From the NCBI GenBank assembly GCA_028716665.1, contig JAQUPP010000001.1, positions 413,046 to 477,045 of the forward strand: a stretch of 64,000 nt of DNA, given 5' to 3'. Source of the stretch: Patescibacteria group bacterium (lineage in GTDB: Bacteria; Patescibacteriota; Patescibacteriia; UBA2591; JAQUPP01). The notes below the pieces were generated by a model. It did no database searches, was not told the DNA's origin, and was given only the letters and a program-made list of their open reading frames with translations. Shown piece by piece: positions 7,876 through 48,545 of the stretch (position 1 is the stretch's first letter; each line of letters begins with the position of its first letter). The translations under genes and the position numbers were made by a program.

Positions 7876-9024
7876 ATGTTTAAAGAGAAAATATTTTCTG
7901 AAAATCAAACAGAGAAAGAATCAGAAATTTTATTTTTGGGAAAAATTGAAGTTGCTAAAAAATCTTTAGAAAATTCTTTAAAATTAAAACCGGAAGAAAA
8001 AGTTTTATTTCTCAAGGATGAGAAAACCAATCTCGAAGTAGCTTCAATCTTAGAAAAAGCAGTTAGCGAGATAGGTTCTGAATTTCAAGAAATTTTATTG
8101 GATAAACAAACCAGAAGAGAAGAGATAAAAGAACTGCTTAAAAAATTCAAAGTTGTGATTGATGTATCTGAGAAAATGTACCCGGCTATTGATAATCTTT
8201 CAGACAAAGACATTGTAGAATATGGCAACCGCCTTTTGACCATTTTGGATCTGGGGGTTGATGCTTTTAAAAAAGATGGAGCATTAGATGAAAATTTAGA
8301 TGATTTAGAGTATAGGCTTAACAAAATGGAGGCGGTTTTGAAAGATGCCAGAGGTTTTAAGATTACTTCAAATTACGGGACAAATTTAGAAGTAGGATTG
8401 CGTCCATCTCATGAAAGACGGTGGTTTAAAGACGGGGGAGTTTTGGATAAACCTGGTCAATGGGGTAACTTTGTGGGTGGAGAAATTTTCACTACACCCG
8501 ACGAGAGAACAGTGAATGGAATTTTAATTTTACCTGTTTTAGAATCAATTATTACCTCGGATCAAGGAGTTGACGAGTTTGTTAAGATTAATATTAAAAA
8601 TGGATTAATTGCTTCTATCGAAGGCGGTAAATCAGCCGAAAAATTGAAGTCTGATTTAAAAGAGGATATGCAAGATGAGGTTAAAGAGAGCGGTAAACCG
8701 TTAAATGTTTTAAGAGTGGCGGAAATTGCATTTGGAGCAAACAGTAAGGCTCGGAGCACTGTTTCTGACCCCGAACAACCTTATGATTTTCCGGGTGTTT
8801 CAATAATTGAAGCGGAAAAAAGATTTGGAACAATGCATCTTGCTTTTGGTGATTCTAAGCATGGAGAGAAGGGTACTGAAGGATTTGAGACGGCTACTTC
8901 GCATTATGATTTTGTTATTCCAAGAAATGGTTTAACGGTTGAAATGTTTACCAGAGAAGAAGATTGGAAAAAGAAAAATAATGGTAAAAAAATAATTTCA
9001 AACGGCGGTTTAAATTTTTTCTAA
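7876..9024 (+). CDS. putative aminopeptidase (M29 / AmpS-like)
   Basis: Weak resemblance to thermophilic metalloprotease family (HLAFG-like motif, overall size). Uncertain. Confidence 0.3.
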   Translation: MFKEKIFSENQTEKESEILFLGKIEVAKKSLENSLKLKPEEKVLFLKDEKTNLEVASILEKAVSEIGSEFQEILLDKQTRREEIKELLKKFKVVIDVSEKMYPAIDNLSDKDIVEYGNRLLTILDLGVDAFKKDGALDENLDDLEYRLNKMEAVLKDARGFKITSNYGTNLEVGLRPSHERRWFKDGGVLDKPGQWGNFVGGEIFTTPDERTVNGILILPVLESIITSDQGVDEFVKINIKNGLIASIEGGKSAEKLKSDLKEDMQDEVKESGKPLNVLRVAEIAFGANSKARSTVSDPEQPYDFPGVSIIEAEKRFGTMHLAFGDSKHGEKGTEGFETATSHYDFVIPRNGLTVEMFTREEDWKKKNNGKKIISNGGLNFF

Positions 9025-9180
9025 AATAAAAAGTATTGACAAATTTTTATTTTTTTGTTATTATCAAGCGAGTGAGAGAAATGAAAATAATAGATTTTCA
9101 TTTCCGATCCGCCAGTTGGCGGAGCAGATATCAAATGGTTTAATAACCTTTATTATAAAATTAAATAAAAAGGAGGTGAA

Positions 9181-11354: not shown

Positions 11355-11369
11355 AAATATGATATAAAT

Positions 11370-11440
11370 AGCAGGGGCGGGGATCGAACCCGCGACGGCA
11401 CGCTTATGAAGCGTGTGCTCTACCGCTGAGCTACCCTGCC
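11370..11440 (-). tRNA. tRNA-Met (CAT), elongator type
   Basis: Cloverleaf folds with G1-U72 acceptor, anticodon loop TTCATAA, T-loop GGTTCGATCC. Confidence 0.8.
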
Positions 11441-11473
11441 ATCATTTTGTTAAGACCTGCTTAAAGTTTTAAT

Positions 11474-11544
11474 TGCGGGGGGGGGATTCGAACCCCCAAC
11501 CTCCAGGTTATGGGCCTGGCGAGCTGCCACTGCTCTACCCCGCG
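11474..11544 (-). tRNA. initiator tRNA-fMet (CAT)
   Basis: Begins CGCGGGG and ends CCCCGCA-A (C1:A72 mismatch); alignable base for base with E. coli tRNA-fMet; anticodon CAT. Confidence 0.8.
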
Positions 11545-11795
11545 TCATTAAGAAATCGATTAGTTATTCTTTTCTTTTCCAAATATCCTTTTGTCGATTT
11601 TAGAAAATATTCTCTTTTATAAGCTTCGTTTTTATCGGAATATTCTTCATGATAGACTAACTTCCATGGTCGGCGAAATTTTGTCGCCCAATCTTTGCCA
11701 CGTTGATGTTCACTAAATCTTCTCTGTAAGTTAGATGTGCAACCGATATAAAATTTATTATCTTTTAAACTTTGTAATATATAAACGTAATACAC
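11535..11795 (-). CDS. GIY-YIG nuclease family protein (small, YhbQ/UPF0213-like), copy 1
   Basis: VYIL...KFYIGCT...R..EH motif set. GTG start. The last 10 nt including the stop overlap the 5' end of tRNA-fMet. Confidence 0.8.
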   Translation of the reverse strand: MYYVYILQSLKDNKFYIGCTSNLQRRFSEHQRGKDWATKFRRPWKLVYHEEYSDKNEAYKREYFLKSTKGYLEKKRITNRFLNDAG

Positions 11796-11808: not shown

Positions 11809-11867
11809 TTATGGGCCTGGCGAGACCCGAAGGGTGGCCCTTGGCCCTGCCACTGCTCTACCCCGCG
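11809..11867 (-). repeat. partial duplicate of tRNA-fMet (positions 1-37) carrying a 22-nt GC-rich double-hairpin insertion
   Basis: CGCGGGGTAGAGCAGTGGCAG-[GGCCAAGGGCCACCCTTCGGGT]-CTCGCCAGGCCCATAA, then divergence from the tRNA. Confidence 0.7.
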
Positions 11868-12118
11868 TCATTAAGAAATCGATTAGTTATTCTTTTCTTT
11901 TCCAAATATCCTTTTGTCGATTTTAGAAAATATTCTCTTTTATAAGCTTCATTTTTATCTGAATATTCTTCATGATAGACTAACTTCCATGGTCGGCGAA
12001 ATTTTGTCGCCCAATCTTTGCCACGTTGATGTTCATTAAATCTTCTCTGCAAATTAGATGTGCAACCGATATAAAATTTATTATCTTTTAAACTTTGTAA
12101 TATATAAACGTAATACAC
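11858..12118 (-). CDS. GIY-YIG nuclease family protein, copy 2 (tandem 323-bp unit)
   Basis: One amino-acid difference from copy 1. Its 3' end overlaps the partial tRNA copy just as copy 1 overlaps the intact tRNA. Confidence 0.8.
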   Translation of the reverse strand: MYYVYILQSLKDNKFYIGCTSNLQRRFNEHQRGKDWATKFRRPWKLVYHEEYSDKNEAYKREYFLKSTKGYLEKKRITNRFLNDAG

Positions 12119-12722: not shown

Positions 12723-12810
12723 TGGTGCCGCGGGAGGGAGTCGAACCCTCATGGGCGTAAAGCCCATACGATTTTGAGTCGTACGCGTATACCAGTTCCA
12801 CCACCGCGGC
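12723..12810 (-). tRNA. tRNA-Leu (CAA)
   Basis: GCCGCGG acceptor, anticodon loop CTCAAAA, long variable arm, GGTTCGACTCC T-arm, encoded CCA. Confidence 0.8.
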
Positions 12811-15703: not shown

Positions 15704-17938
15704 CTATTTTTGTGATTTGTGAGGATTATGCATGGAACATGCTTTATTACTGCATCTTTCGGGTATGGTTTTAGTTCCTTGCATCATTAAAGATCCGCAA
15801 AGGTCGCAGGTTTTTCCCGTTGGTCTGGATTTTATTATAAATTTGCATTTAGGATAATTGGAGCAGGAAAAAAACGGACCGAATCTTCCGCGGCGTTCCA
15901 CAATTTCCCCTTCGCATTTGGGGCATTTTACTCCGGTTTTTGCTTTGGCTTCTTCTTCAGCGCTTCTTTTAATAAATTTACATTTTGGATAATTGCTGCA
16001 AAAAATAAATTTACCAAAGCGGCCTTCGCGTTCCACAAGTTTACCCGTTGAACATTCAGGACACATTTCGCCGGTTTCTTTCGGACCTTCCATTATAGAG
16101 CCGTCTGCTTTTCTGGCGCCGGCGCATTCCGGAAATTTCGCGCAGCTTAAAAATTTTCCGGTTTTGGATAATTTTATGACCATCGGGCCGTTGCAAACCG
16201 GGCATTTGAATTTTTCATCAGCATCTCCAAGATTGGTTACCTTGTCTATTTTTTCTTTTGATTTAACGTCTTTGGAAAATGGTCCGTAAAAATCTTTTAA
16301 AACTTTTTCATATTTTATTTTTCCTTCAGCTATTTCATCAAGTTCGTTTTCCATTTCCGCGGTAAAGGAATCGCTGATATATTTTGGAAAATTATTTTCA
16401 AGAAAATCACTGACCACTTCGCCGGTGTCGGTGGGGTGGAGCGTTTTGCCGTCTTTAGTCACATATCCGCGGTCATTGATTGTTTTAATAATGTAAGCAT
16501 AAGTGCTCGGTCTTCCGATTTCGCGTTTTTCCAATTCTTTCACCAATCCGGCTTCCGTGTAGCGGCCGGGCGGTTCTGTTTGTTTCCCTTGGCTTTCAAG
16601 ATTCAATAATTCTAATTTTTCATCTTTGGATAATTTTGGTATTTGAACTTCTTCGCCCTGAGCTTCCACGTCTGCCGCGAGCCATCCCGGAAAAACAGTG
16701 ATGCTTCCGACAACGGAAAAATTAGGAATTATTCCTTCTTTATTTATATTGGCGGAAATTTTTGTTCTGAGCATTTTGGCATCAGTCATTTGAGAAGAAA
16801 TCGTTCTCGCCCAAATTAATCCGTATAATCTTTCCTGTTCTTCGTTTATGCCGGCGCTTTTTAATCCGATGTTTGTCGGACGGATGGCTTCGTGCGCTTC
16901 TTGAGCGCTTTTGCTTTTTGTTTTATAAATTCGCGGTTCTAAATATTTTTTACCGAAAGTTTTTTCTATTTCTTGATGGATTACAGGCAAGGCTTCTTTG
17001 CTGATAATCACGCTGTCGGTTCTCATGTATGTAATCAAGCCTTGTTCATAAAGTTTTTGAGCCACCATCATTGTGCGCGAAGGGGAAAATCCGAGTCGGG
17101 AACTGGCTGTTTGTTGAAGCGTTGAAGTGGTAAATGGCGCGCGAGGGGAACGTTTGGCTTCGGTTTGTTTTATTTCAGCTATATGCCAGGGATTGGCGCG
17201 GCCGGCTTCTAAAATTCTATTGGTTTCTTTTTCATCAGCCGGTTCTTTGTCGCAAGTTAAAATAATTTTATCTTGTGCTGAGCTTGCCTGTTCTGAGCTT
17301 GTCGAAGGCGTCGAAGCATCTTTTTTTTCTGTCTGGAATTCTCCGGTTAAAACCCAATAATTTTCCGGTATAAACGCTCTGATTTCGCGTTCTCTTTCCA
17401 TAATAATGCGCAATGCAGGTGATTGAACGCGTCCGGCCGAAAGTCCATAACGGACTTTTTTCCAAATAAGGCCGCTCAAATCATAACCGACAAGACGATC
17501 CAAAACTCGGCGCGCTTCTTGAGCTTGCCGCAAATTTTCGTCAATTTCGCGCGGATGATTTATCGCTTCTTTAATCGCGTTTTCGGTGATTTCATGAAAA
17601 ACAATTCTTTTTGGATTTTTCAAACCGCAAGTTTCTTTCAAATGCCAAGCAATCGCTTCTCCTTCGCGGTCAGGATCTGTCGCGAGCAGCACTTCGCTTG
17701 AGTTTTTGGCGAGACTTTTAATTTTGGAAACAACATCTTCTTTTCCTTTGGTGATTTCATAATGAGGAATAAATCCCGCTTTGATATCAATGGCTTTTTT
17801 ATTGCTTTTCGGAAGATTGCGAATATGTCCGTAAGAAGATTCAATTAAAAATTCATCTCCCAAAAAATGAGAAATGGTTTTTGATTTTGTCGGCGACTCA
17901 ACAATGATTAATTTTTTTTGATTTTTAGTTTTTGACAT
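15704..17938 (-). CDS. topA: DNA topoisomerase I
   Basis: TOPRIM and catalytic Tyr domain with multiple C-terminal C4 zinc ribbons; 744 aa. Confidence 0.9.
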   Translation of the reverse strand: MSKTKNQKKLIIVESPTKSKTISHFLGDEFLIESSYGHIRNLPKSNKKAIDIKAGFIPHYEITKGKEDVVSKIKSLAKNSSEVLLATDPDREGEAIAWHLKETCGLKNPKRIVFHEITENAIKEAINHPREIDENLRQAQEARRVLDRLVGYDLSGLIWKKVRYGLSAGRVQSPALRIIMEREREIRAFIPENYWVLTGEFQTEKKDASTPSTSSEQASSAQDKIILTCDKEPADEKETNRILEAGRANPWHIAEIKQTEAKRSPRAPFTTSTLQQTASSRLGFSPSRTMMVAQKLYEQGLITYMRTDSVIISKEALPVIHQEIEKTFGKKYLEPRIYKTKSKSAQEAHEAIRPTNIGLKSAGINEEQERLYGLIWARTISSQMTDAKMLRTKISANINKEGIIPNFSVVGSITVFPGWLAADVEAQGEEVQIPKLSKDEKLELLNLESQGKQTEPPGRYTEAGLVKELEKREIGRPSTYAYIIKTINDRGYVTKDGKTLHPTDTGEVVSDFLENNFPKYISDSFTAEMENELDEIAEGKIKYEKVLKDFYGPFSKDVKSKEKIDKVTNLGDADEKFKCPVCNGPMVIKLSKTGKFLSCAKFPECAGARKADGSIMEGPKETGEMCPECSTGKLVEREGRFGKFIFCSNYPKCKFIKRSAEEEAKAKTGVKCPKCEGEIVERRGRFGPFFSCSNYPKCKFIIKSRPTGKTCDLCGSLMMQGTKTIPERCSNKACSMHNPHKSQK

Positions 17939-18788
17939 AATTTCCGCCTCCCAGGTTTTTCACTTTGCCGTTTATTTCCATTAATGTCAAGATGGCAATG
18001 GCCTGACTGGTGCTAAATTTACTTGATTTAATTAATTGGTCAATATGCACGGGCTCGTGACTTAAAAATTTCCATAATATTTTTTCTTCCGGCAAAGTCG
18101 GTTCGGGTGTTTCGGAAATTTTTTCCGACAGTTCCAAATTAAAAGCGTCTAAAATATCTTCGGCTTTGGTAACCGCTTTCGCGCCCATTTTAATCAGTTG
18201 ATTGCAGCCGGCTGAATTCGGATTGTAAATGCTGCCTGGCACGGCGAAAACTTCCCGTCCTTGATCCAAAGCTGAATGCGCGGTAATCAATGCTCCGGAT
18301 TTTTCCGGTGCTTCTATCACCAAAGTTCCCAAAGAAAGTCCGGCGATAATTCTGTTTCTGGCTGGAAAAGTCCATCTGGTCGGGGAGGTGGTCGGTTGAT
18401 ATTCAGAAACTATTGCTCCGTTATTTTTAATAATATTTTTTGCCAAGGTTCTGTGAAGCGGCGGATAAATAATATCAGGACTTGAACCCAAAACCGCGAT
18501 TGTTCGGCCGCCATTATCCAAAGTTGTTTGATGAGCCAATCCGTCCACACCCAAAGCCAAACCGCTGACAATGGTTAATCCGGCCTTGACCAAATCTTTG
18601 GTTAAGGAAACGGTAATTTGCTTTCCATAACTTGAAACTTTTCTTGTCCCGACAATTGCCAAGGGATAATTTTCTTCCGCTTTGATTTTGCCGATGGCAT
18701 ACAGATTTTGAGGCGGGTCATAAATTTCTTTCAGCAGTTTCGGATAGTTTTTATCTTTGAGATTAATTTTTAAAACAGGGCTTGACAT
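17925..18788 (-). CDS. dprA: DNA processing protein DprA (Smf)
   Basis: Rossmann-like DprA domain (GLALGVDGLAH, VPGSIYNPNSAGCNQLIKMGA). Confidence 0.8.
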   Translation of the reverse strand: MSSPVLKINLKDKNYPKLLKEIYDPPQNLYAIGKIKAEENYPLAIVGTRKVSSYGKQITVSLTKDLVKAGLTIVSGLALGVDGLAHQTTLDNGGRTIAVLGSSPDIIYPPLHRTLAKNIIKNNGAIVSEYQPTTSPTRWTFPARNRIIAGLSLGTLVIEAPEKSGALITAHSALDQGREVFAVPGSIYNPNSAGCNQLIKMGAKAVTKAEDILDAFNLELSEKISETPEPTLPEEKILWKFLSHEPVHIDQLIKSSKFSTSQAIAILTLMEINGKVKNLGGGNYVKN

Positions 18789-18876
18789 TTTTCAATTTTT
18801 ATGCTAATATTTAATCAGTTCATTTATAACAAAAATAGCAAATAGCAAATTAATTGTCAATTAAAAAGGGGGAAAA

Positions 18877-19272
18877 GTGGAAAAAAAAGTAGATAAAGTT
18901 ATAAAAGATGAAAATAGAGAAATAATTGAAGTAGTAATGATCGTTGGAGGACATACTAAAAAATATAGAAAAATTGACGGAAAAATTACTGAGGTTGAAA
19001 TTGAAAAATCATTTGTTATTCCTCCTGATATTAAGAAGAAAGTTGAACAGCAGGTTTGGGCAATTTTTCATTCTGTTTCGAAGAAAGTTGTAAAAAGTAA
19101 AATGAACTCGTATCAGGTAATATTAAAAGGAAGAACAGAAGAGTTCGATATTAATGTGGGTGCGCCAATTTGTGCTACCAGTCCCGAAGAGGCAATAGAA
19201 AGTGTGAAAGAATATGCAAAACGAATGAAATTACCGATAGAGAGCAGAAAATTAATTGCTGTACAGTTATAG
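18877..19272 (+). CDS. hypothetical small protein
   Basis: GTG start after AAAAGGGGGAAAA; first of three tightly spaced small genes. Confidence 0.4.
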   Translation: MEKKVDKVIKDENREIIEVVMIVGGHTKKYRKIDGKITEVEIEKSFVIPPDIKKKVEQQVWAIFHSVSKKVVKSKMNSYQVILKGRTEEFDINVGAPICATSPEEAIESVKEYAKRMKLPIESRKLIAVQL

Positions 19273-19282
19273 GAGGTGGAAG

Positions 19283-19432
19283 ATGGGAGACAAAAAAATC
19301 CTGCGTGTTAAGGGATACAGTAACATCGATAAAATTTGTTGGAGCAAATTTTCGCCCAACGAATATAAGATAGAAGACGTTTGGTTTATGGGACACTATA
19401 TATGGAAAGTAGTATTAGTCAGAAAAGCCTAA
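19283..19432 (+). CDS. small ORF, 49 aa, not in ORF track
   Basis: ATG 6 nt after AGGAGGTGGAAG; lies between the two flanking small genes. Confidence 0.3.
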   Translation: MGDKKILRVKGYSNIDKICWSKFSPNEYKIEDVWFMGHYIWKVVLVRKA

Positions 19433-19443
19433 AGGAGGCAAAG

Positions 19444-19728
19444 ATGAATAAATATCAAGTGATGGTAGAAGGCGGAAGTGTAACCGTTTGTGGAGATAGA
19501 AAAACACCAAGGTGTGTGCTTAGAAAAAAGGCAAAGAAAACTGGTGGCGAAGATTTTCAACCCGCAGATTATACTTATATAGGAAATGGAGAGTGGATGG
19601 TAAGAGAAAAAGACGTCAAAATAGGCAAACCAATTGAGGTTCAGACTAGTCGAGAAGCGGTGAGAAAAGTGGCCCTCTTAGAAAGGATGTCGCAAACTAA
19701 TTTGTTTGCGGTTAAAGTGCCAAAATAA
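19444..19728 (+). CDS. hypothetical small protein
   Basis: ATG after AAAGGAGGCAAAG; shares an MNxYQV N-terminal motif with the C-terminal half of 18877-19272; terminator hairpin follows. Confidence 0.4.
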   Translation: MNKYQVMVEGGSVTVCGDRKTPRCVLRKKAKKTGGEDFQPADYTYIGNGEWMVREKDVKIGKPIEVQTSREAVRKVALLERMSQTNLFAVKVPK

Positions 19729-19807
19729 AAAAATTTTTAGCGCCCGTTTATAAAAAACGGGCGCTATTTTTTTGGACAAATTTTTTAAAAATAGTATTAT
19801 AAATGGT

Positions 19808-20869
19808 ATGAGAATATTTTTAAGCGGCGGCGGCACAGGCGGTTCGGTCAGTCCGCTTTTAGCCATCAGCCAAGAAATAAAGAAACATAATCCGGAAGCA
19901 AAATTTTTATTTATCGGAACTCGCCAAGGTTTGCCGGAGAGGGAATTGGCTCAATCATACAATATTCCTTATCAACCGATTTTTTCCGGTAAATTGAGCC
20001 GTTATTTTTGTTGGCGCAATTTTGTTTCTCCATTTTTAATTATTGCAGGTTTTTTACAATCTGTTTTTTTAATTTTAAAATTTAAGCCAAAAGCTATTGT
20101 TTCGGCCGGGGGATTTGTCGCCGTGCCATTGGTTTGGGCCGGTTGGTTTTTCAGAACGCCGATTTTTATCCATCAACAAGATGTTATTCCGGGTTTAGCC
20201 AATAAATTAATGGCTCCTTTTGCTAAAATTATCACCGTCAGTTTGGAAAAATCGTTGAATGATTTTCTGAAAGAAAAAACCGTTTTGACCGGTAATCCGG
20301 TTCGCCCGGACATAAAAAATTATTCTCGAGAAAGAGCGATTAAAAGATTTGATTTGGAAACTAATTTGCCGACATTATTGGTTATCGGCGGCGGCACAGG
20401 CGCGGAAAATATCAATAAATTGATTAATAAAATTATTCCCGAATTGGTTAAATTTTGTCAGATAATTCACATAACAGGGAAAAGAAAAATACAAGTTGCG
20501 CAAACTCTAACTCATTATCATCAATACGAATTTTTAAACGAAGCGATGCCAGATGCTTTAACGATTGCCGATTTGATTATCAGCCGAGCCGGAATGGGAT
20601 TTCTAACCGAATTGTCAATTTTGGGAAAACCGGCGATTATAATTCCAATGCCGAATTCGCACCAAGAAATTAATGCTCAATATTTTGCCGAACAAAAGGC
20701 GATTGTTTTAATGGAAGAAAAAAATATCAATCATAAAATTTTATTTGATAAAATTCATCAATTGATTTTTGCCGCCAGCGAACGTTCTGTTTTGAGTTTG
20801 AATATTTCCAAATTGGCCAAGCCTGATGCCGCTTCCAAAATTGCGGAAATTATTTTGAAGAACATTTGA
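19808..20869 (+). CDS. murG: undecaprenyldiphospho-muramoylpentapeptide beta-N-acetylglucosaminyltransferase MurG
   Basis: N-terminal GGTGG motif and GT28 two-domain fold. Start placed at MRIFLSGGG. Confidence 0.8.
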   Translation: MRIFLSGGGTGGSVSPLLAISQEIKKHNPEAKFLFIGTRQGLPERELAQSYNIPYQPIFSGKLSRYFCWRNFVSPFLIIAGFLQSVFLILKFKPKAIVSAGGFVAVPLVWAGWFFRTPIFIHQQDVIPGLANKLMAPFAKIITVSLEKSLNDFLKEKTVLTGNPVRPDIKNYSRERAIKRFDLETNLPTLLVIGGGTGAENINKLINKIIPELVKFCQIIHITGKRKIQVAQTLTHYHQYEFLNEAMPDALTIADLIISRAGMGFLTELSILGKPAIIIPMPNSHQEINAQYFAEQKAIVLMEEKNINHKILFDKIHQLIFAASERSVLSLNISKLAKPDAASKIAEIILKNI

Positions 20870-20943
20870 CAAAAAGTAATAGTAGAATATAATAAGCAAT
20901 AGAAAAATAAAAAGTTTGCTCATTGGCAGACAAGGGGGATAAA

Positions 20944-21543
20944 ATGGCTCTTTTAAATTTTTTAGGTTTTTTAGGTCTTTGGTATGTTAAAGTAGTGATT
21001 TCGTTGTTTATTATTTTCATGATAATTTGTTTTATTCAGTCTATTGGGAATAAAATTTTGAAAAAACGTTTTCCCGATGACGCAGCTTTCATTAAGTACA
21101 TGAGACAATTCTATGGTTTCAAAGTTCTCCTTGATTATGCTGAATCAAAGGGTATAACCGTGAAAATGGGTGGAAGAAGAAATGGAAGTTGGGATATGGA
21201 AAATAAAATTATTACGATTGATATTGATACTGTTTTTAAGGAAAAATATCGGTTAATGGGGATGGCATTTTTCGCTCATCAAATCGGACACATTGAATCG
21301 TTTGATCCGCAAATTTCCGAATGCAGAAATAAATTAAGGGAAAAAAATTCCGATACGTACTTCATCTGTTACTATGAAGAAAAAATGGCATGGGAGGCAG
21401 GAAGTAAAATTTTGGATTGTTTGGAACTATTAATTCCCGAATATTGGCGATATTATGAACGTCAATGTCTAAATAATTTATGCCCTGATTTTCCTTGTCC
21501 CTTTTTCGAAAAGAATAATACCAAAGAGCCTCAAACAACATGA
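20944..21543 (+). CDS. membrane-anchored DUF955 (ImmA/IrrE-like) domain protein, degenerate HQxxH
   Basis: N-terminal TM, KGITVKMG...ITIDIDT...FAHQIGHIE pattern of ImmA/IrrE metallopeptidases, Cys-rich C-terminus. Confidence 0.45.
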   Translation: MALLNFLGFLGLWYVKVVISLFIIFMIICFIQSIGNKILKKRFPDDAAFIKYMRQFYGFKVLLDYAESKGITVKMGGRRNGSWDMENKIITIDIDTVFKEKYRLMGMAFFAHQIGHIESFDPQISECRNKLREKNSDTYFICYYEEKMAWEAGSKILDCLELLIPEYWRYYERQCLNNLCPDFPCPFFEKNNTKEPQTT

Positions 21544-21665
21544 TAACGTGAAATTAAAAAATGCCCTCTGAAATCAGAGGGCATTTTAATATCTTGACAA
21601 AAACCGAAAAATGTGCTTAAATAATAGTAATCCAGACAATAAAGTTTGGAAACCAGGAGGAAATA

Positions 21666-22391
21666 ATGGATCTTTTAAAATCATTTATATTGGCAGTATT
21701 TATTGTTTCAATACCAAAGATATTAGAGGGAATGAGTTGGGTTCTTGCGTATATGGAAGTATTCATGAAATATTGGGTTTTTAGGCCGATTTATTACAAT
21801 CAGGTTTCTCGTCGACTTTATCCCAGACAAAATCGGAAACTGAAAAAATATCTGAGAAATTCACCGGTTTTTTCCAAGCTTTTGGCTTATGCCACATTAA
21901 ATGGGATAAAAGTGGAGAAGGGATGTTCTCGCAATCCTAACTGTGATTGGTCTGCTTGTACTTCAATCAGTACAGTTAAAGTTTACAATGTTAATGATGT
22001 TTATAGATTTAAACGTCAAGAAGAGGGGGTTTATTCTTTCGCGCACGAAATAGGGCATATTGAATTTCACAGAAATAAACCTACTCCAAAATGTTGGGAT
22101 GAGATGGAAAAAATTGAAGATCCTCCGCTCAGTTTTAAAGAAAAACTTGAAGCCTGGATAAAGAAAGATTCTGACAAATCTTGCGGATGTTTTTGGGACG
22201 AGTGGATGGGGTGGATATATGGTTATAATGCTCTCAGATCCGCGGGCGTGCCAATTAATGAAAAAAAATATTGGCGAATTGCTTTGAATTGTATTCCCCA
22301 ACATGAAGTTTGTCCTCTTTGGCCATTCGGATGCGAAAAGTTTAACGCCATTCAAACTCTAGAGAAGAAATATAGAGAAAAATTAAAATAA
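21666..22391 (+). CDS. membrane-anchored ImmA/IrrE family metallopeptidase (HEIGH)
   Basis: Paralogue of the preceding gene with an intact HExxH (FAHEIGHIEFH); Cys-rich C-terminal region. Confidence 0.5.
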   Translation: MDLLKSFILAVFIVSIPKILEGMSWVLAYMEVFMKYWVFRPIYYNQVSRRLYPRQNRKLKKYLRNSPVFSKLLAYATLNGIKVEKGCSRNPNCDWSACTSISTVKVYNVNDVYRFKRQEEGVYSFAHEIGHIEFHRNKPTPKCWDEMEKIEDPPLSFKEKLEAWIKKDSDKSCGCFWDEWMGWIYGYNALRSAGVPINEKKYWRIALNCIPQHEVCPLWPFGCEKFNAIQTLEKKYREKLK

Positions 22392-22553
22392 AAAGCCTCC
22401 TGAATTATAGGGGGCTTTTTTATATTATAATAATGCATTAATTTAAAAATTGGTCTTGACATTTTTGAAAAAATATGCTACAATAATATCAATACTGAGA
22501 AAGTTTTTGGCATAAAGCCAATGATTTAAAACTCGGTATAAATGGGGGAAACG

Positions 22554-23210
22554 ATGGATAAAAAATCTATCGGCGCAGAAACGGCCAAATTGGCTGGTCT
22601 GCATATGGACTGCAATATGAAGATCAAAGATCTTCAACTCGGTTTAGACGAATATGAATGTTTTCTAAACCTGACTTCAGAACAGCGTCAACAAGCCTTA
22701 GCACCTTTCAAAAAGGATTCGCGCTTCAAATTGGCTAATGCGTTTGAAATTGTCGTGCCAAAGGGGTATGACCACGCCACTCGTTTGACTGTTTTCAAAG
22801 CAACACACGGTAAAGAGTTTTATTATTACAATCCTGAAATCACTGACAAGAATTTTGATAAAGCGACGACAAAACTTTTACCCGGTCGGAAATTTAAAGT
22901 AAAAGTTTTTCAGATTACGGAAACAGTAAATTCAGAGGACTGTTTGAAATTTCTCAAAACGCAGAAAGCTGTTTTAACCGGAGCTCAGGGCGCGTCATTG
23001 GTTTATGAACTTGCCAAAAACAAGTTGCCAAAGGGCCATTGGTATATTTCATTTGATAAGAAAGATTCTCTTTGGATTGAATCTGGCGGTGTTCACCGCG
23101 TGCCGGGCGTCTTCCGCCGCTCGGATGGCGACTTCGAGTTCTACCTCGGCAACTTTGAGCATGGCTGGGACGACGACTGCTGCTTGCTCTGCTTCTGCGA
23201 CTGTGATTGA
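22554..23210 (+). CDS. hypothetical protein with GC-rich 3' end encoding a Cys-rich tail
   Basis: SD GGGGGAAACG-ATG. The last ~125 nt is conspicuously GC-rich and encodes ...GWDDDCCLLCFCDCD; terminator hairpin follows. Confidence 0.45.
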   Translation: MDKKSIGAETAKLAGLHMDCNMKIKDLQLGLDEYECFLNLTSEQRQQALAPFKKDSRFKLANAFEIVVPKGYDHATRLTVFKATHGKEFYYYNPEITDKNFDKATTKLLPGRKFKVKVFQITETVNSEDCLKFLKTQKAVLTGAQGASLVYELAKNKLPKGHWYISFDKKDSLWIESGGVHRVPGVFRRSDGDFEFYLGNFEHGWDDDCCLLCFCDCD

Positions 23211-23286
23211 TTAGAAAATTAAATTCAGACCTCCTGTTTCGACAGGAGGTCTTTTTTATTTATAAAAAAAGTGTAGAATATTAATC

Positions 23287-23556
23287 ATGCCCGCCCAAAT
23301 TTTTTATTACGTATACATTTTGCGCAGTTTAAAAGATAGTAAATTTTATATTGGCTTTACAAAAGATTTAAGAAGAAGACTAGAAGAACACAATAATAAA
23401 ATGTCTACATCTACTAAATCAAGAGCGCCATTTACTTTGGTTTATTATGAAGCATATCTTCATTCAGGAGATGCCAAAGAACGAGAAAGATTTTTTAAAT
23501 CTGGGTGGGGTAGAAATTATATTAAAAAATCACTTAAACGTTATTTATGTCAATAA
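23287..23556 (+). CDS. GIY-YIG nuclease family protein, copy 3
   Basis: YYVYILRS...KFYIGFT motif set. The stop overlaps the murC start. Flanked by the two halves of a 34-nt palindrome. Confidence 0.8.
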   Translation: MPAQIFYYVYILRSLKDSKFYIGFTKDLRRRLEEHNNKMSTSTKSRAPFTLVYYEAYLHSGDAKERERFFKSGWGRNYIKKSLKRYLCQ

Positions 23557-25022
23557 AAAATTTAGGCGGGAAAAAAATACATTTTATCGGCTTGGGTGGA
23601 ATCGGGGTAAGCGCTCTGGCAAAAATGATGATTCAACAGGGCAAAAAAGTTTTTGGCTCTGATTTGAATTCTTCCGAAATAATCAAGAAACTGGAAAAAA
23701 TGGGAGTTAAATTTTATCAAGGCCATAAAGCGGAAAATTTGTCAGCTGATATTGATTTGGTTATTTATTCGCCGGCCGTGGAAAAAAATAATCCGGAAAG
23801 AATAAAAGCGAAAAAATTATCCATTCCCGAATTTTCTTATCCGGAATTTTTAGGAGAATTAAGCAAAGAAAAATTCACTATTGCTGTCAGCGGCACGCAT
23901 GGCAAATCAACCACTACGGCGATTTTGGGTTTGATTTTGGAACAAGCCAAATTGGATCCGTTAGTGATTGTCGGAAGTAAGGTGCCTCAATGGAATGGAA
24001 ATTTACGCATATCACGGACTAATACGGACTCAACGCGGACCAACACGGACAGTCAGCGTAAGTCAGTGTCAGGTCAGTGTCAGTCTGTGTTTGTGGTGGA
24101 AGCTTGCGAATGGCGGGCGCATATGTTGAATTTATCGCCCAAAATGATTGTTTTGAATAATTTGGAATTGGATCATACTGATTATTATAAAGACATCGAT
24201 CATTTAATTAGAACTTTTAAAACATATATTAAAAAATTGCCCAAAGACGGAGTTATAATTTTAAACGTTGACGATGTTAATTTGACCAAGCTTAAATCAA
24301 AAAACAAGACCATAACTTTTGGCATTAAAAATCACGCCGAAGTAATGGCGAAAAATATTATTACCAAACACGGCGAGCAAATTTTTGATTTATGTTTTAA
24401 GGGTAAAACTTACAATTTCCGGTTGAAAGTTCCGGGAATTTTTAATGTTTATAATGTTTTGGCGGCAACAGCCGGCGCTTTGGCATTGGGCGTTAAACCC
24501 GAAATAATTAAAAAATCCGTAGAAAATTTCTACGGGATTTGGCGAAGATTTGAGAAAATAGGGGAATATAAAAAAGCGATTATTATTTCCGATTATGCTC
24601 ATCATCCGACTGCTGTTTCCGGCACTATTCAAGCGGCTAAAGAATTTTACCCAGGAAAAAGAATCGTGGCAATATTTCAGCCTCATCATCACAATCGGAC
24701 TAAAAAATTATTTAAGGAGTTTATCAAGTGTTTTAAAGGCGCTGACCTGACAATCATTTCGGAAATTTACGATGTAGCGGGTCGAGAAGAAGAAAAAGAT
24801 CAAGATGTCAGTTCAAAAGATTTGGTTAAAGCAATCCGCGCCAGATATGAAAAAATTCCAAATTCCAAATTCCAAATTCCAAATTCTAAAAATGTTTTAT
24901 ATGCTAAAAATTTAGTAGAAGTTAAACAACTAATATTAAAGAACATAAAGCCAGGTGACGTAATCCTTGTCATGGGCGCAGGGGATATTTATCAAATTGC
25001 CAATGATTTGGTAAAAAGATAA
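23547..25022 (+). CDS. murC: UDP-N-acetylmuramate--L-alanine ligase MurC
   Basis: GIGGIGVSALA and GTHGKSTTT motifs and the Mur ligase C-terminal domain. Contains two odd in-frame repeat insertions (see findings). Confidence 0.85.
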   Translation: MSIKNLGGKKIHFIGLGGIGVSALAKMMIQQGKKVFGSDLNSSEIIKKLEKMGVKFYQGHKAENLSADIDLVIYSPAVEKNNPERIKAKKLSIPEFSYPEFLGELSKEKFTIAVSGTHGKSTTTAILGLILEQAKLDPLVIVGSKVPQWNGNLRISRTNTDSTRTNTDSQRKSVSGQCQSVFVVEACEWRAHMLNLSPKMIVLNNLELDHTDYYKDIDHLIRTFKTYIKKLPKDGVIILNVDDVNLTKLKSKNKTITFGIKNHAEVMAKNIITKHGEQIFDLCFKGKTYNFRLKVPGIFNVYNVLAATAGALALGVKPEIIKKSVENFYGIWRRFEKIGEYKKAIIISDYAHHPTAVSGTIQAAKEFYPGKRIVAIFQPHHHNRTKKLFKEFIKCFKGADLTIISEIYDVAGREEEKDQDVSSKDLVKAIRARYEKIPNSKFQIPNSKNVLYAKNLVEVKQLILKNIKPGDVILVMGAGDIYQIANDLVKR

Positions 25023-25056
25023 TTGGGATTTATTTGAAAAAGTTTTCCACAGATTA

Positions 25057-25083
25057 TTAGCACTCGGACTTGACGAGTGCTAA
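25057..25083. promoter_or_regulatory. CIRCE operator (HrcA binding site) overlapping a TTGACG-N17-TACAAT promoter
   Basis: Perfect TTAGCACTC-N9-GAGTGCTAA inverted repeat upstream of hrcA-grpE-dnaK. Confidence 0.85.
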
Positions 25084-25240
25084 TTTTTAGTCTACAATAT
25101 TTTTTTGTATGCCAGGTAGTGAAAATTTGGTTAATAATCAATAAAGACAAGATTTTTACAAGCTGGCTTTTTAAAGAAATAAATTTATATTTTAAAAATA
25201 AATATAAAATTTAATAAATATCAAATTTCTACTACCTGGT

Positions 25241-25975
25241 ATGTTAACTCAAAGGCAAAATCAATTGCTTAAAACCATTGTCTCTCAATATATTAAAACC
25301 GCGGAGCCGGTTAGTTCAGAGTCATTGGCTGATAAATATAGATTGTCGGCCCAAGGCCGATCCGCCTCGGGCGGAAAAATAAGTCCGGCTACTATTCGCA
25401 ATGAGATGATGGAATTAACCAAAGAAAATTTTTTAATCCAGCCGCATACTTCGGCCGGCCGTATTCCCACTGAGAAGGCCTATCATTATTATATTAAAAA
25501 TTTTTTACAGCAAGAAGAAGTCAGCCAAATTGAAAAAAGAAAATTAAACAGCGCCAGAAAAGAAAATCAGTCTTTGGAAATTTCAGCCAAGAGAATCGGC
25601 GAGAAAATAGCGGAGTTGACCAACGGATTGGTTATTTTGGCTTTTGATAAAGATAATTTTTATTACACCGGCCTTTCTTCCTTGTTTAGCCAACCAGAAT
25701 TCAATCAAATGGAAGTTGTTTATAATGTTTCGCAAATTATAGATCATTTGGATCAAACCGTTGCCAAAATTTTTGACGAAATAGAAAGCAATCACCGCGT
25801 TTTTTTGGGACGAAGCAACCCGTTTGGTGATTTTTGCGGAACAATTTTAATCAAATATCATACACCAAATCAAAAAAGGGGCGTAGTATTGGGTCTTTTG
25901 GGACCGATGAGAATGGATTACAACAGAAATATCGCTTTAATAGAATATGCCAAAGAGATATTGGACAAAGTTTAG
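25241..25975 (+). CDS. hrcA: heat-inducible transcription repressor HrcA
   Basis: N-terminal wHTH alignable to B. subtilis HrcA (SPATIRNEM) with an 11-aa in-frame insertion; CIRCE lies upstream. Confidence 0.85.
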   Translation: MLTQRQNQLLKTIVSQYIKTAEPVSSESLADKYRLSAQGRSASGGKISPATIRNEMMELTKENFLIQPHTSAGRIPTEKAYHYYIKNFLQQEEVSQIEKRKLNSARKENQSLEISAKRIGEKIAELTNGLVILAFDKDNFYYTGLSSLFSQPEFNQMEVVYNVSQIIDHLDQTVAKIFDEIESNHRVFLGRSNPFGDFCGTILIKYHTPNQKRGVVLGLLGPMRMDYNRNIALIEYAKEILDKV

Positions 25976-25992
25976 AAATTAAAAATTTTATT

Positions 25993-26286
25993 ATGCCAGG
26001 TAGTGAAACTTTGATAACGATTATGTTTTATTATGTCTATGTTTTACAAAGTATAAAAAATAATGGCCTTTATGTGGGTTATACTTTAGATTTAAAGAAA
26101 AGATTACAAGAACATAATCGTAAATTAAATTTTTCTACCAAAGCAAATATCCCATGGAAACTTATTCACTATGAAGCCTATCTTAATAAAGACGATGCGC
26201 AACGTCGAGAGAAATATCTCAAAACTTCTCAAGGAGCCAGATTATTAAAGCGCATGCTTAAAGAATATTTTTATAATAATAAATAA
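25993..26286 (+). CDS. GIY-YIG nuclease family protein, copy 4 (between hrcA and grpE)
   Basis: MFYYVYVLQS...LYVGYT motif set; ATG embedded in the left terminal inverted repeat. Confidence 0.7.
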   Translation: MPGSETLITIMFYYVYVLQSIKNNGLYVGYTLDLKKRLQEHNRKLNFSTKANIPWKLIHYEAYLNKDDAQRREKYLKTSQGARLLKRMLKEYFYNNK

Positions 26287-26306
26287 TCAAAGTTCTACTA
26301 CCTGGT

Positions 26307-26837
26307 ATGTCAGATGAAGAAATAAAAAAATTGCAAGAAGAAATCGAATTAATGAAGCAACAAGCGGAAGAATATTTAAACGGCTGGAAAAGAACCAAGG
26401 CCGATTATCTTAATCGCGAAAAAGAAATTGATAAAGAAAAAATTGAATGGATAAAATTCGCCAATTTGGAATTAATTTTGAATTTTTTGCCGATTATGGA
26501 CAGCTTTGATCACTCGGTAAAAAATTTAACGGAAATAGAAAACAGTGGTTTGACAAGCTCACCACGAGATGGTTCGACTTCTTCGACAAGCTCAGGGCAA
26601 GCAAGCTCACCACAAGGCGAGTGGGCAAATGGCGTTTTAAAAATCAAAGACCAATTTGAAAGTTTTTTAAAAGCGCAGGGCGTTGAAAAAATAAAAACTT
26701 TGGGAGAAAAATTCGACCCCATGTTTCACGAAGCAATTGGCAAACAAGGGGAAGAGAATGAAATTGTTGAAGAAATTCAAAGCGGATACGTGATGCACGG
26801 CCGAGTTATCAGACCGGCGAAAGTAATAATTAAGTAA
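26307..26837 (+). CDS. grpE: nucleotide exchange factor GrpE
   Basis: GrpE coiled-coil and beta domain (FLPIMDSFD, FDPMFHEAIG) with a 23-aa in-frame insertion. Confidence 0.85.
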   Translation: MSDEEIKKLQEEIELMKQQAEEYLNGWKRTKADYLNREKEIDKEKIEWIKFANLELILNFLPIMDSFDHSVKNLTEIENSGLTSSPRDGSTSSTSSGQASSPQGEWANGVLKIKDQFESFLKAQGVEKIKTLGEKFDPMFHEAIGKQGEENEIVEEIQSGYVMHGRVIRPAKVIIK

Positions 26838-26868
26838 ATTTAATAATTAATTTGTAAATAATAAATAT

Positions 26869-28809
26869 ATGTCAAAAATTATAGGAATTGACTTAGGAAC
26901 ATCTAACTCAGCTGCTTCTTACATGGAAGCGGGCAAATCAAAAATAATTCCCTCAGCCGAAGGGACAACTTTAGTTGGCGGAAAAGCTTTTCCGTCATAC
27001 GTCGCTTTCACAAAAGAAGGCGAACTTTTAGTCGGTGAACCGGCTCGTCGTCAAGCAGTGGCTAATCCGGAAGGCACAATTTTGGCCGCAAAAAGAAAAA
27101 TGGGCACTGACTTCAAATATAATATTTTCGGCAAAGAATACACGCCTCAGCAAATTTCCGCTTTTATTTTGCAAAAAATAAAAAAAGACGCGGAAATGTA
27201 TTTGGGCGATAAAGTGGAAAAAGCGGTTGTGACCGTGCCGGCTTATTTTAATGACGCGCAAAGACAAGCAACCAAAGATGCCGGAGCGATTGCCGGACTT
27301 GAAATCGTCCGTTTGGTTAATGAACCGACCGCGGCCAGTTTGGCTTACGGTTTGGATAAAGTTCAGGAAAAAGATCAGCAAGTTTTGGTTTTTGATCTCG
27401 GCGGCGGAACATTGGATGTGACGATTATGAATTTCGGCCAAGGCGTTTTTGAAGTTCGTTCCACTTCCGGCGACACCAAACTCGGCGGCACGGATATGGA
27501 TGAATCTTTGATAAATTATATAATTGATGAATTTAAAAAAGAGCAAGGCGTTGATTTGAAAGCTGACAAAATGGTAACCCAGAGAGTCAAGGAAGCGGCT
27601 GAAAAAGCGAAAATTGAATTGTCTTCAGCTCTGGAAACGGAAATTAATTTGCCGTTTATTACCGCCACCAACGAAGGACCGAAACATTTATTGATGAAAA
27701 TCACCCGGGCGAAATTGGAAGAATTGGTTAAACCGATTGTTGATCGCTGTCGTGTTTCAATTGAACAGGCGATTTCAGACGCCAAACTTACCCCCGCTAA
27801 TATTGAAAAAGTTATTTTAGTCGGCGGTCCGACCAGAATGCCGATTGTCCAGAAATTTATTGAAAATATTTTCGGCCCGAAAATCGCTCGAGGCGTTGAC
27901 CCGATGGAATGCGTGGCCATGGGCGCGGCAATTCAAGGCGCGATTTTAGCCGGCGAAACAGAAGTCAAAGACGTTCTATTATTGGACGTCACGCCGCTTA
28001 CTTTAGGCATTGAAACTTTAGGCGGAGTAATGACGCCGATTATTGACCGCAATGCGACTATTCCAACTTCAAAATCTCAGGTTTTTTCTACTGCAGCTGA
28101 CAATCAAACTTCAGTGGAAATTCATGTTTTGCAGGGAGAAAGACCGATGGCCGGCGACAACCGGACTTTAGGTAGATTTATTTTGGACGGCATTCCGCCG
28201 TCTCCAAGAGGCATTCCTCAAGTTGAAGTCGGTTTTGATTTGGACGCAAACGGTATTTTAACCGTCACGGCAAAAGATAAGGCCACTTCAAAATCTCAGC
28301 ATATTACCATTAAAGATACTTCCGCGCTTTCCAAAGAAGAAATTGAAAAAATGAAAAAAGCAGCCGAGCAATTTGCCGCTGAAGACAGAAATAAAAAAGA
28401 AATAATCGAATTGAGAAATCAATCCGACACTTTAATTTATACTTGCGAAAAAAGTTTAAAAGACGGCGGCGATAAAATTCCGGCTGATGTCAAAAAGCAA
28501 GTTGAAGACAAGGTTGCTGAATTGAAAAAAGTCAAAGACGCGAATGATATTGAAGTGATTAAAAAAGCGATTCAAGATTTGGGCGACACGGTTCAAAAAA
28601 TCGGCGCGGCGATGTATGGTTCGACCTCTTCGACAGGCTCAGAGCAAGCAGGCTCACCACAAGATGGTTCGGCCTCTTCGACAGGCTCAGAGCAAGCAGG
28701 CTCACCACAAGCCCCGGGTGCTCAACCAGAAGCCGGTCCGACAGAAGAAAAAAAGAAGGATGAAGGACCGATTGAAGGGGAATATACGGAAGAAAAACCT
28801 AAATCCTAA
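26869..28809 (+). CDS. dnaK: molecular chaperone DnaK (Hsp70)
   Basis: [28 protein letters not shown] signatures; 646 aa with two tandem 16-aa repeats in the C-terminal tail. Confidence 0.95.
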
Positions 28810-48207: not shown

Positions 48208-48462
48208 ATGGTAAATAAAACAATGCATACAATTTATGTTTTAAGAAGTCTGAAAGATGATAATTTATATATAGGCTGTACTTCTGATTTACAGAAGAGA
48301 TTAAGAGAACATAGAAATAAAAAAGTTTTTTCTACTCGCAATAGGTTGCCAATGAAGTTAATTTATTTTGAAAATTACCCTGATAAATATGAAGCTTATA
48401 GAATGGAAAGATTTTATAAAACCGCTAAAGGTAAAAAAATAATTAAAAACAAAATAATATAA
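48208..48462 (+). CDS. GIY-YIG nuclease family protein, copy 5 (immediately 5' of tRNA-Gln)
   Basis: IYVLRS...LYIGCT motif set; flanked by 12-nt direct repeats TGCGGGATCGTC. Confidence 0.75.
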   Translation: MVNKTMHTIYVLRSLKDDNLYIGCTSDLQKRLREHRNKKVFSTRNRLPMKLIYFENYPDKYEAYRMERFYKTAKGKKIIKNKII

Positions 48463-48469
48463 TAAATAA

Positions 48470-48545
48470 TGCGGGATCGTCTAATGGTAGGACTCCAGCC
48501 TTTGGAGCTGGCTATGATGGTTCGAATCCATCTCCCGCAGCCAAA
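48470..48545 (+). tRNA. tRNA-Gln (TTG)
   Basis: U1-A72 acceptor typical of bacterial tRNA-Gln, anticodon loop CTTTGGA, GGTTCGAATCC T-arm, encoded CCA. Confidence 0.8.

Follow-up and report, generated by a model that had tools for sequence, protein, structure and literature searches.

In the genome of a Patescibacteria bacterium, the cell-wall genes murG and murC are separated by four genes that we think likely fill an old accessory slot whose contents have been swapped: a pair of zincin-like genes (open reading frames ORF A and ORF B), a gene for a variable protein of the type diversified by diversity-generating retroelements (DGRs; ORF C), and a GIY-YIG gene. The source is a metagenome-assembled genome of the CPR (candidate phyla radiation), and the window, meaning the whole 64,000-nt stretch that was analysed, covers positions 413,046 to 477,045 of contig JAQUPP010000001.1; coordinates below are those of the window unless a locus is named. 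Family assignments were tested with Pfam, NCBIfam and PHROGs. The slot is shared, with different contents, by the nearest relatives, and the 3' end of ORF C bears the imprint of adenine-directed mutagenesis, which its homologs display inside complete DGR cassettes.

A slot shared across one clade

The interval spans 20870-23546 (2,677 bp) and holds four genes on the + strand. It is bordered on the left by murG (19772..20869, +; Pfam Glyco_transf_28 E 5e-30, Glyco_tran_28_C E 1e-25) and on the right by murC (23547..25022, +; three Mur ligase domains in Pfam, 80-90% identity in close relatives). A first-pass annotation, made from the sequence alone, had placed 2.7 kb between the two genes, and its borders at 20869/23547 are exact. 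It had further read this DNA as an island inserted into a normally adjacent pair. We compared 58 loci, drawn from GTDB genomes by a MurC scan and from Joint Genome Institute (JGI) metagenomes by a MurG scan, and classified them with hidden Markov models of the B and C families together with BLAST.

In each of the six related loci, whose murG is 64-89% identical to that of the window, an A/B-family gene stands right after murG, and in all five of them that reach murC it lies between the two genes. What accompanies it differs. Where the window has A, B, C and GIY-YIG, locus L004 (the same as L033; murG 86%) has two C-like genes, a B-like gene and a GIY-YIG gene, and L005 (88%) and L031 (87%) each have a C-like and a B-like gene. 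L032 (88%) has an A-type gene only, and L023 (66%) a B-like gene and a polysaccharide deacetylase; no C-family gene is present in these two slots. In L026 (72% over 114 aa) a B-like gene follows murG and the contig ends before murC. Since each of the six related loci has homologs in this position, the slot core is best seen as an inherited feature of the clade and not as a recent insertion. The B-family gene marks one clade and has kept its position there, and we hold a conserved, clade-wide slot to be very likely.

Beyond this clade the picture changes. The B family is absent from loci at 56-63% murG identity, where murG is followed by a Mur ligase and murC (L036) or directly by hrcA-grpE-dnaK. 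At 30-52% identity nine loci have murG and murC side by side, and in others unrelated genes stand between them. These nine distant loci bear out the view that the window holds extra DNA between a normally adjacent pair, but the synteny comparison proposed in the first pass goes largely against its recent island, since relatives carry the same genes. The distant interrupters are a 427-432 aa amidohydrolase-like protein, a 170-aa membrane protein and a second Mur ligase (L054-L056, L063/L068, L036), and murG-murC adjacency is not strict in Patescibacteria.

Divergence is far higher inside the slot than beside it: slot genes are 23-50% identical to the window copies, flanking genes 80-99%. ORF B is 31-33% identical to the type found in L004, L005 and L031, and A and B types share 23-29%. 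Across L004, L005, L031, L032 and the window (15704-28809) the flanks reach 99% for dprA and 93-96% for topA, and the same genomes share 85-89% in murG, 79-94% in murC and 86-97% in hrcA. The B-like proteins of L004 and L005 are 89% identical to each other, similar to their flanks. The nearest neighbour changes between murG, murC and hrcA, which argues for recombination around the slot. The mosaic of identities suggests recombination together with elevated divergence centred on the slot, and the simplest reading is that old lineages, either paralogs or alleles, have been reshuffled by recombination and diverge most strongly there. Such a mosaic also suggests diversifying selection, which would be relevant to how these episymbionts vary.

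ORF C carries the variable region of a probable DGR target

With high confidence, we identify ORF C (22542 or 22554..23210, +; 222 or 218 aa, likely start ATG 22554; NCBI PHE59_03110) as the target, or variable protein, of a DGR. The first pass had noted a 219-aa protein here, which is indeed present with a Cys-containing end (DDDCCLLCFCDCD), and had missed this identity. No model in Pfam, NCBIfam or PHROG matches ORF C. Its homologs form at least 369 clusters, all from Patescibacteria or metagenomes, and the proteins are unnamed. A phage origin of the family was considered and set aside, with 1 match among 2.9 million viral contigs.

The 3' end of the gene is depleted of adenine. The equivalent of a DGR variable region (VR; 23082..23202, +), which encodes SGGVHRVPGVFRRSDGDFEFYLGNFEHGWDDDCCLLCFCD, contains 10.7% A compared with 33.3% elsewhere in ORF C (Fisher p 2e-7), and falls within the lowest 0.025% of all 121-nt stretches in the window. 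Against the template repeat (TR) of a homologous locus, L001, the VR differs at 15 of 28 A sites and at 15 of 93 other sites (p 2.5e-4). This TR encodes Asn (AAY, Y = pyrimidine) at nine positions, and across 34 family members the corresponding columns hold 8-12 residue types. ORF C agrees at 0-1 of these nine sites with the homologs closest to it (73-80% identity overall), and with the same homologs at 24-25 of the 31 other VR sites. The AAY columns alternate with invariant scaffold residues, namely R-V-P, S-D-G, F-x-L-G, W and C-L-L-C-F-C-D. The Cys-rich tail of ORF C consists of this conserved CLLCFCD scaffold strand plus residues at variable sites, here D and C.

Two further candidate features were rejected. 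Another very A-poor stretch, at ~2979, is a transmembrane (TM) region of MurJ and not a second VR. The hairpin that follows ORF C (23227..23252, +; 11-bp stem, UUCG loop) looks like an ordinary terminator rather than a DGR-specific hairpin 3' of the VR, and similar hairpins also follow homologs that have no VR.

Homologs of ORF C sit in complete DGR cassettes. In L001 a 121-nt repeat of the 3' end of the homolog P0005 comes after that gene, then bAvd on the opposite strand and then an RVT_1 reverse transcriptase (RT), and 16 of 17 mismatches between VR (8580-8700) and TR (9038-9158) fall at TR adenines. L071 and L072 show the same target-TR-Avd-RT order, with 12 of 12 and 15 of 16 mismatches at TR adenines. 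Seven further contigs, judged by identical length, are apparently common to the C-homolog and RT matches, among the matches listed. The three verified cassettes (L001 8001-10533, L071 5001-7520, L072 5001-7508) lie among housekeeping genes, with neighbours tsaD/glutaredoxin, ligA-pemK/gatC and secY/adk.

Stand-alone homologs are also common. L028 is syntenic with L001 and keeps only the target gene (1462-2118), having neither Avd nor RT, which argues for gain or loss of the RT module independently of its target. L029 has no DGR machinery within 6 kb of its C homolog. The VRs of both stand-alone genes still contain 9-11% A.

ORF C resembles the DGR-linked gene of L001 much more than it does its positional counterparts: it is 75% identical to P0005, versus 34-40% to the syntenic C-like genes. 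The second C-like copy of L004 and the C-like genes of L005 and L031 have no CLLCFCD end and contain 29-31% A. Because the VR of ORF C is as A-poor as verified targets (10.0% in L001), while these decayed homologs are not, we favour either recent DGR action on ORF C or its recent acquisition. One weak marker hints at lateral acquisition: the ATP-cone protein, the only L001-window marker compared, is 38% identical and possibly non-orthologous.

Structure prediction agrees with this assignment. An AlphaFold2 model of ORF C has a mean confidence (pLDDT) of 90, and Foldseek searches of PDB and BFVD both place C-type lectin domains on top (E 0.05-1, TM-score at most 0.5), so that a C-type-lectin-like fold is predicted as likely. 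ORF C has no signal peptide and no TM helix. This agrees with Roux et al. 2021 (PMC8144416), who report that the targets of CPR clade-2 DGRs typically show neither TM segments nor any other domain that can be recognised.

Set against known systems, ORF C has its counterparts in the C-type-lectin variable proteins of DGRs (Bordetella phage BPP-1 Mtd, Treponema denticola TvpA, archaeal AvpA and Thermus TaqVP), and specifically in the targets of Patescibacteria and CPR DGRs (clade 2, PMC8144416; CPR set, PMC5758913). It shares with them a ~120-nt, C-terminal, A-depleted VR, variable AAY codons that alternate with scaffold, a predicted lectin-like fold and homologs in target-TR-Avd-RT cassettes, and its sequence is, as reported for CPR targets, free of TM helices and recognisable domains. 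Unlike targets that adjoin their DGR, it has no TR, RT or Avd within the 64 kb and stands alone beside zincin-like genes. Targets that do not adjoin their RT, in some cases lying more than 100 kb away, are on record (Wu et al. 2018, PMC5758913).

ORF C would thus be a stand-alone copy of a C-type-lectin-fold protein that clade-specific DGRs diversify in other Patescibacteria, and its last 40 codons have evidently passed through adenine-specific mutagenic retrohoming. It would therefore be a ligand-binding protein whose surface is hypervariable. A DGR beyond the window may still service it in trans, or the target may have been orphaned or only recently acquired. The abundance of DGR targets in Patescibacteria is established, but functionally they are blank. 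ORF C adds a clean, checkable stand-alone example in a CPR genome, and its place beside cell-wall genes and a tethered zincin offers a concrete neighbourhood for studying function.

ORF A and ORF B belong to a small zincin-like family

ORF A (20944..21543, +; 199 aa, ATG after AAGGGGG, longest frame from TTG 20923) and ORF B (21666..22391, +; 241 aa, AGGAGG ribosome-binding site, TTGACA upstream) are paralogous (BLASTP E 2e-12, 28-29% identity). Each begins with a hydrophobic helix, and they contain 7 and 9 Cys, respectively; the first pass had correctly recognised two paralogous, membrane-anchored, Cys-containing proteins, one with HQIGH and one with HEIGH. The 199-aa protein P0123 is identical to ORF A. 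The NCBI entry for ORF B (PHE59_03105, 212 aa) starts at Met30 and so drops the N-terminal TM helix (window 21666-21752). The omitted segment is a family-conserved helix (M-x-L-L-K/N start) behind the AGGAGG.

The family is tiny. ORF B has one non-self homolog among 5.8 billion sequences, and an exhaustive HMMER search with the A/B profile found only 20 proteins, nearly all of 200-230 aa, among 1.84 billion cluster representatives. It has no model in Pfam, NCBIfam or PHROG and is in that sense undescribed. In an alignment of 22 sequences H127, H131 and E179 are invariant, and A126, E128, C175, W183 and W203 nearly so, with E128 kept in 21. E179 lies ~48 residues downstream of HExxH within an ExxAW motif and would be the third metal ligand. 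The conserved Cys set (Cys175, Cys216 and Cys223 in ORF B), with a C-terminal CP...CP pair common across the family, probably forms a structural metal site.

Topology was another check named in the first pass. An N-terminal TM helix is found in 16 of the 22 members, and the 20 residues that follow it contain 1-8 K/R, exceeding the N-terminal flank in most; in ORF B too the helix is followed by a K/R-rich segment. By the positive-inside rule alone, this segment would place the HExxH domain in the cytoplasm. We consider it fairly likely that ORF B is a cytoplasm-facing, active metallopeptidase. ORF A is the sole aligned member without the catalytic Glu, Q replacing E128, and its ortholog in L032 (3760-4383, 50% identity) reads YQIGY, with both zinc-binding His replaced and the frame intact. 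Together they appear to form a second, catalytically dead lineage, predicted to be a pseudo-peptidase retained for a non-catalytic role. The family would in that case offer a natural active/inactive pair.

The first pass had assigned both proteins to DUF955, the ImmA/IrrE-like M78 peptidases, and this identity did not hold up. On ORF B the Pfam M78 model (PF06114) scores 14.2 bits against a cut-off of 22 (E 0.038, residues 122-141 only), and on ORF A it finds no match. Pfam matches of individual members are exclusively to M78 (4 of 22 at E<1, best 0.0026), M48 (3 of 22, best 0.013) and M56 (1 of 22, 1.4e-4), all of them marginal. The family profile searched against PDB sequences retrieves Ste24p, an M48 peptidase (E 7e-4 over ~107 residues), and MJ1213, a minigluzincin (E 6e-3), followed by weaker matches to proabylysin (0.2), HtpX (0.7) and archaemetzincin, and no M78 structure. 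The M78 assignment is therefore unsupported, as a sub-threshold Pfam match of ~20 residues stands against profile matches to M48 and minigluzincin structures. PADLOC defence models likewise gave marginal matches only, including CapP, an M78-type regulator of cyclic-oligonucleotide-based antiphage signalling (CBASS; E 0.006), and a defence-system identity for the interval genes was rejected on that basis.

On sequence evidence, we take the A/B family to be a membrane-tethered minimal gluzincin, nearest to M48, M56 and the minigluzincins, and not a demonstrable member of DUF955. It is predicted to share with minigluzincins (proabylysin, projannalysin/MJ1213), M48 (Ste24, HtpX) and M56 (BlaR1) a small core of helix, beta-sheet and HExxH helix, a downstream Glu in an ExxA-type motif, and membrane association. 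In M48 peptidases the downstream motif is ExxAD. Unlike the polytopic M48 and M56 membrane peptidases, the family has a single N-terminal anchor, an extra conserved Cys set and one lineage without catalytic residues. It is like M78/DUF955 proteins (ImmA, IrrE, CapP) in being a small HExxH zincin with marginal matches at the motif helix, and unlike them in its membrane anchor, its scores under the Pfam gathering threshold and its want of a partner gene with a helix-turn-helix (HTH) or XRE domain. The absence of an XRE repressor had been noted in the first pass, and we found no HTH in any interval ORF, nor in either ORF of the two that lie upstream of murG (Pfam, NCBIfam, PHROGs).

A GIY-YIG gene between the murC promoter and murC

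The last gene of the interval (23287..23556, +; 89 aa) has a clear GIY-YIG domain (PF01541, 55.2 bits against a cut-off of 22.6, E 9e-15) and is, as the first pass had counted, the third copy in the window, which holds five. Upstream of it lies a conserved promoter block, TTTATAAAAAAAGTGTAGAATA (23259..23280, +). The same block stands directly upstream of murC in L005, and the L004 block differs from it by 2 mismatches (…GTGTAAGATA). The stop of the GIY-YIG gene overlaps the murC start, and its 3' end supplies a new start for murC. L004 holds a 95.5% identical copy at the same place, and L005, L031 and L032 have none; this is the only interval gene with presence/absence polymorphism. We conclude from these comparisons that the gene is probably a mobile, selfish insertion that entered between the murC promoter and murC and would now be co-transcribed with murC. 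It resembles homing-endonuclease-related GIY-YIG genes in its clear domain, its multiple copies and its polymorphism, and differs from them in that its 89 aa include no DNA-binding domain and in its position between promoter and murC, not in an intron or intein.

The five stand-alone GIY-YIG genes of the window lie at 11535-11795(-), 11858-12118(-), 23287-23556(+), ~26020-26286(+) and 48208-48462(+), and the others are 45-49% identical to copy 3. Three copies adjoin tRNA genes (11369-11544, 12726-12810, 48470-48540). Between hrcA and grpE the window has copy 4, which L004 and L005 lack at that place.

Transcription signals

ORFs A, B and C have intact frames, each with a strong promoter-like or ribosome-binding signal and its own terminator. 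The ORF A promoter (20866..20893, +) is a sigma-70-like consensus site, TTGACA and TATAAT spaced by 16 nt, with 12 of 12 matches, and the murG stop codon overlaps the first of its two hexamers. A 13-pair palindromic stem, found by the scan on the - strand, forms the terminator hairpin after ORF A (21558..21587). ORF B is followed by a terminator at 22390..22420 (+; 13-pair stem, then a T run), and ORF C is preceded by a promoter-like site at 22456..22484 (+; TTGACA, 17 nt, TACAAT with TG; 11 of 12 matches). The strong promoter of what the first pass had called a cassette promoter and leader is thus real. The repeated cassette is not: elsewhere in the window there are just short matches to consensus promoters or ribosome-binding sites, which are generic signals. 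Rfam found no RNA element within the murG-murC interval.

Weighing the reading and its alternatives

Taken together, the constant resident of the slot would be a gene of a tiny, lineage-restricted, TM-anchored family with a gluzincin core, of which ORF B may be an active Zn peptidase on the cytoplasmic face of the membrane, while its companions differ between close relatives. Several results weigh against parts of this reading. For ORF C, the best Foldseek E value (0.046) is statistically weak, and the C-family profile has no match among PDB sequences, nor is there a sequence match to any solved variable protein. In the window, neither tblastn with the L001 RT and Avd nor blastn with the VR (word size 7) found a TR, RT or Avd, and none of the best 120 of ~8000 RT homologs comes from the window's own contig; present-day diversification of ORF C is therefore unproven. 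For ORF B, all zincin family matches of the A/B proteins fall under curated thresholds, and a model built from a 3-sequence alignment reached a pLDDT of 57, its fold search being uninformative. A possible second hydrophobic segment in ORF B runs counter to a single-anchor topology, and its domain may instead be extracytoplasmic, with disulfides. Functional coupling of B and C is possible but unsupported, as each is found without the other: B occurs without C in L032 and L023, C is widespread without B, and no evidence ties the two directly.

An unlikely alternative, though the best of those considered, is that the whole interval is what remains of a DGR cassette, with A and B as accessories or partners of C, for example a membrane tether or a processing protease. 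The B and C families do co-occur in four of six fully covered slots (the window, L004, L005 and L031), each window gene is an independent, cassette-like transcription unit, and C-family DGR cassettes do insert among housekeeping genes. Their distributions speak otherwise. Besides the two slots with a B-family gene and no C, there is no B-family gene at the three verified DGR loci (L001, L071, L072) or at the orphan loci L028 and L029, and the B family has 20 representatives where C has at least 369 clusters. The VR signature, moreover, is lost in the syntenic C-like genes of L005 and L031 and in the second copy of L004.

We give slightly less credence to the possibility that ORF C is an orphaned or fossil target, no longer diversified, and that A and B are decaying genes without function. 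The window yielded no DGR machinery, the close homolog locus L028 has lost Avd and RT relative to L001, and ORF A has lost its catalytic Glu. A fossil VR is nevertheless hard to reconcile with an A content that still matches the verified active target of L001 and not the decayed homologs. Nor do intact frames with strong expression signals and terminators look like decay; the A lineage is intact in L032 at 50% identity, and B-type genes of L004 and L005 that are as similar to each other as their flanks are consistent with ordinary constraint.

A more ambitious picture, which we rate as improbable to about the same degree, makes the slot a dedicated diversification locus that combines a cytoplasmic, DGR-diversified lectin-fold sensor with a tethered zincin and its inactive paralog. 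If it were true, the lectin-fold protein would sense a changing ligand, for example a component of a phage or of a host cell, and the peptidase/pseudopeptidase pair would relay the signal or carry out the response where lipid II is made. The slot would then encode a DGR-coupled module of a new kind, for sensing or defence, with deeply divergent alleles maintained by recombination. The accessory-slot reading that we prefer is more ordinary than the island proposed in the first pass; the finding is real and overturns no current knowledge.

Least likely of all is a recently inserted mobile island with ImmA/IrrE-type (M78, DUF955) antirepressor peptidases whose XRE partner was lost or lacking: the weak M78 match at the HEIGH region, the CapP match, the four members touched by M78 and the adjacency of murG and murC in more distant relatives favour it, but that M78 match is sub-cut-off and the PDB profile points to M48 and minigluzincins, no HTH partner occurs in the interval or among the genes identified at related loci, the gene is syntenic across the clade down to 64-68% MurG identity, and there is no integrase, att site or tRNA at the interval borders. 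Composition argues the same way, as the interval GC of 0.31-0.44 is comparable to the surroundings, with its peak at the VR of ORF C and no further compositional break.

Other observations in the window

The flanking genes have peculiarities of their own. A GC-rich element of ~50-60 nt occurs in frame in grpE (26541-26645), dnaK (28616-28711, two copies) and topA (17272-17321, other strand), where it yields 'STSSTSSGQASSPQ'-type peptides and is reminiscent of the Rickettsia palindromic elements inside coding genes. The murC gene contains an in-frame low-complexity insert, RTNTDSTRTNTDSQRKSVSGQCQSV, at ~24015-24100, which differs among relatives (L004 8001-9509, L005 7983-9446). L004 murC has a second insert further on, and murG of L004 and L005 have private inserts. 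Between dprA and murG lie two small ORFs (18877-19272 and 19381-19728) that seem paralogous by eye. Homologs of the second are found at the same place in L005, L031, L032 and L066 at ~30% identity, so that the two appear to be a fast-diverging pair beside conserved genes.

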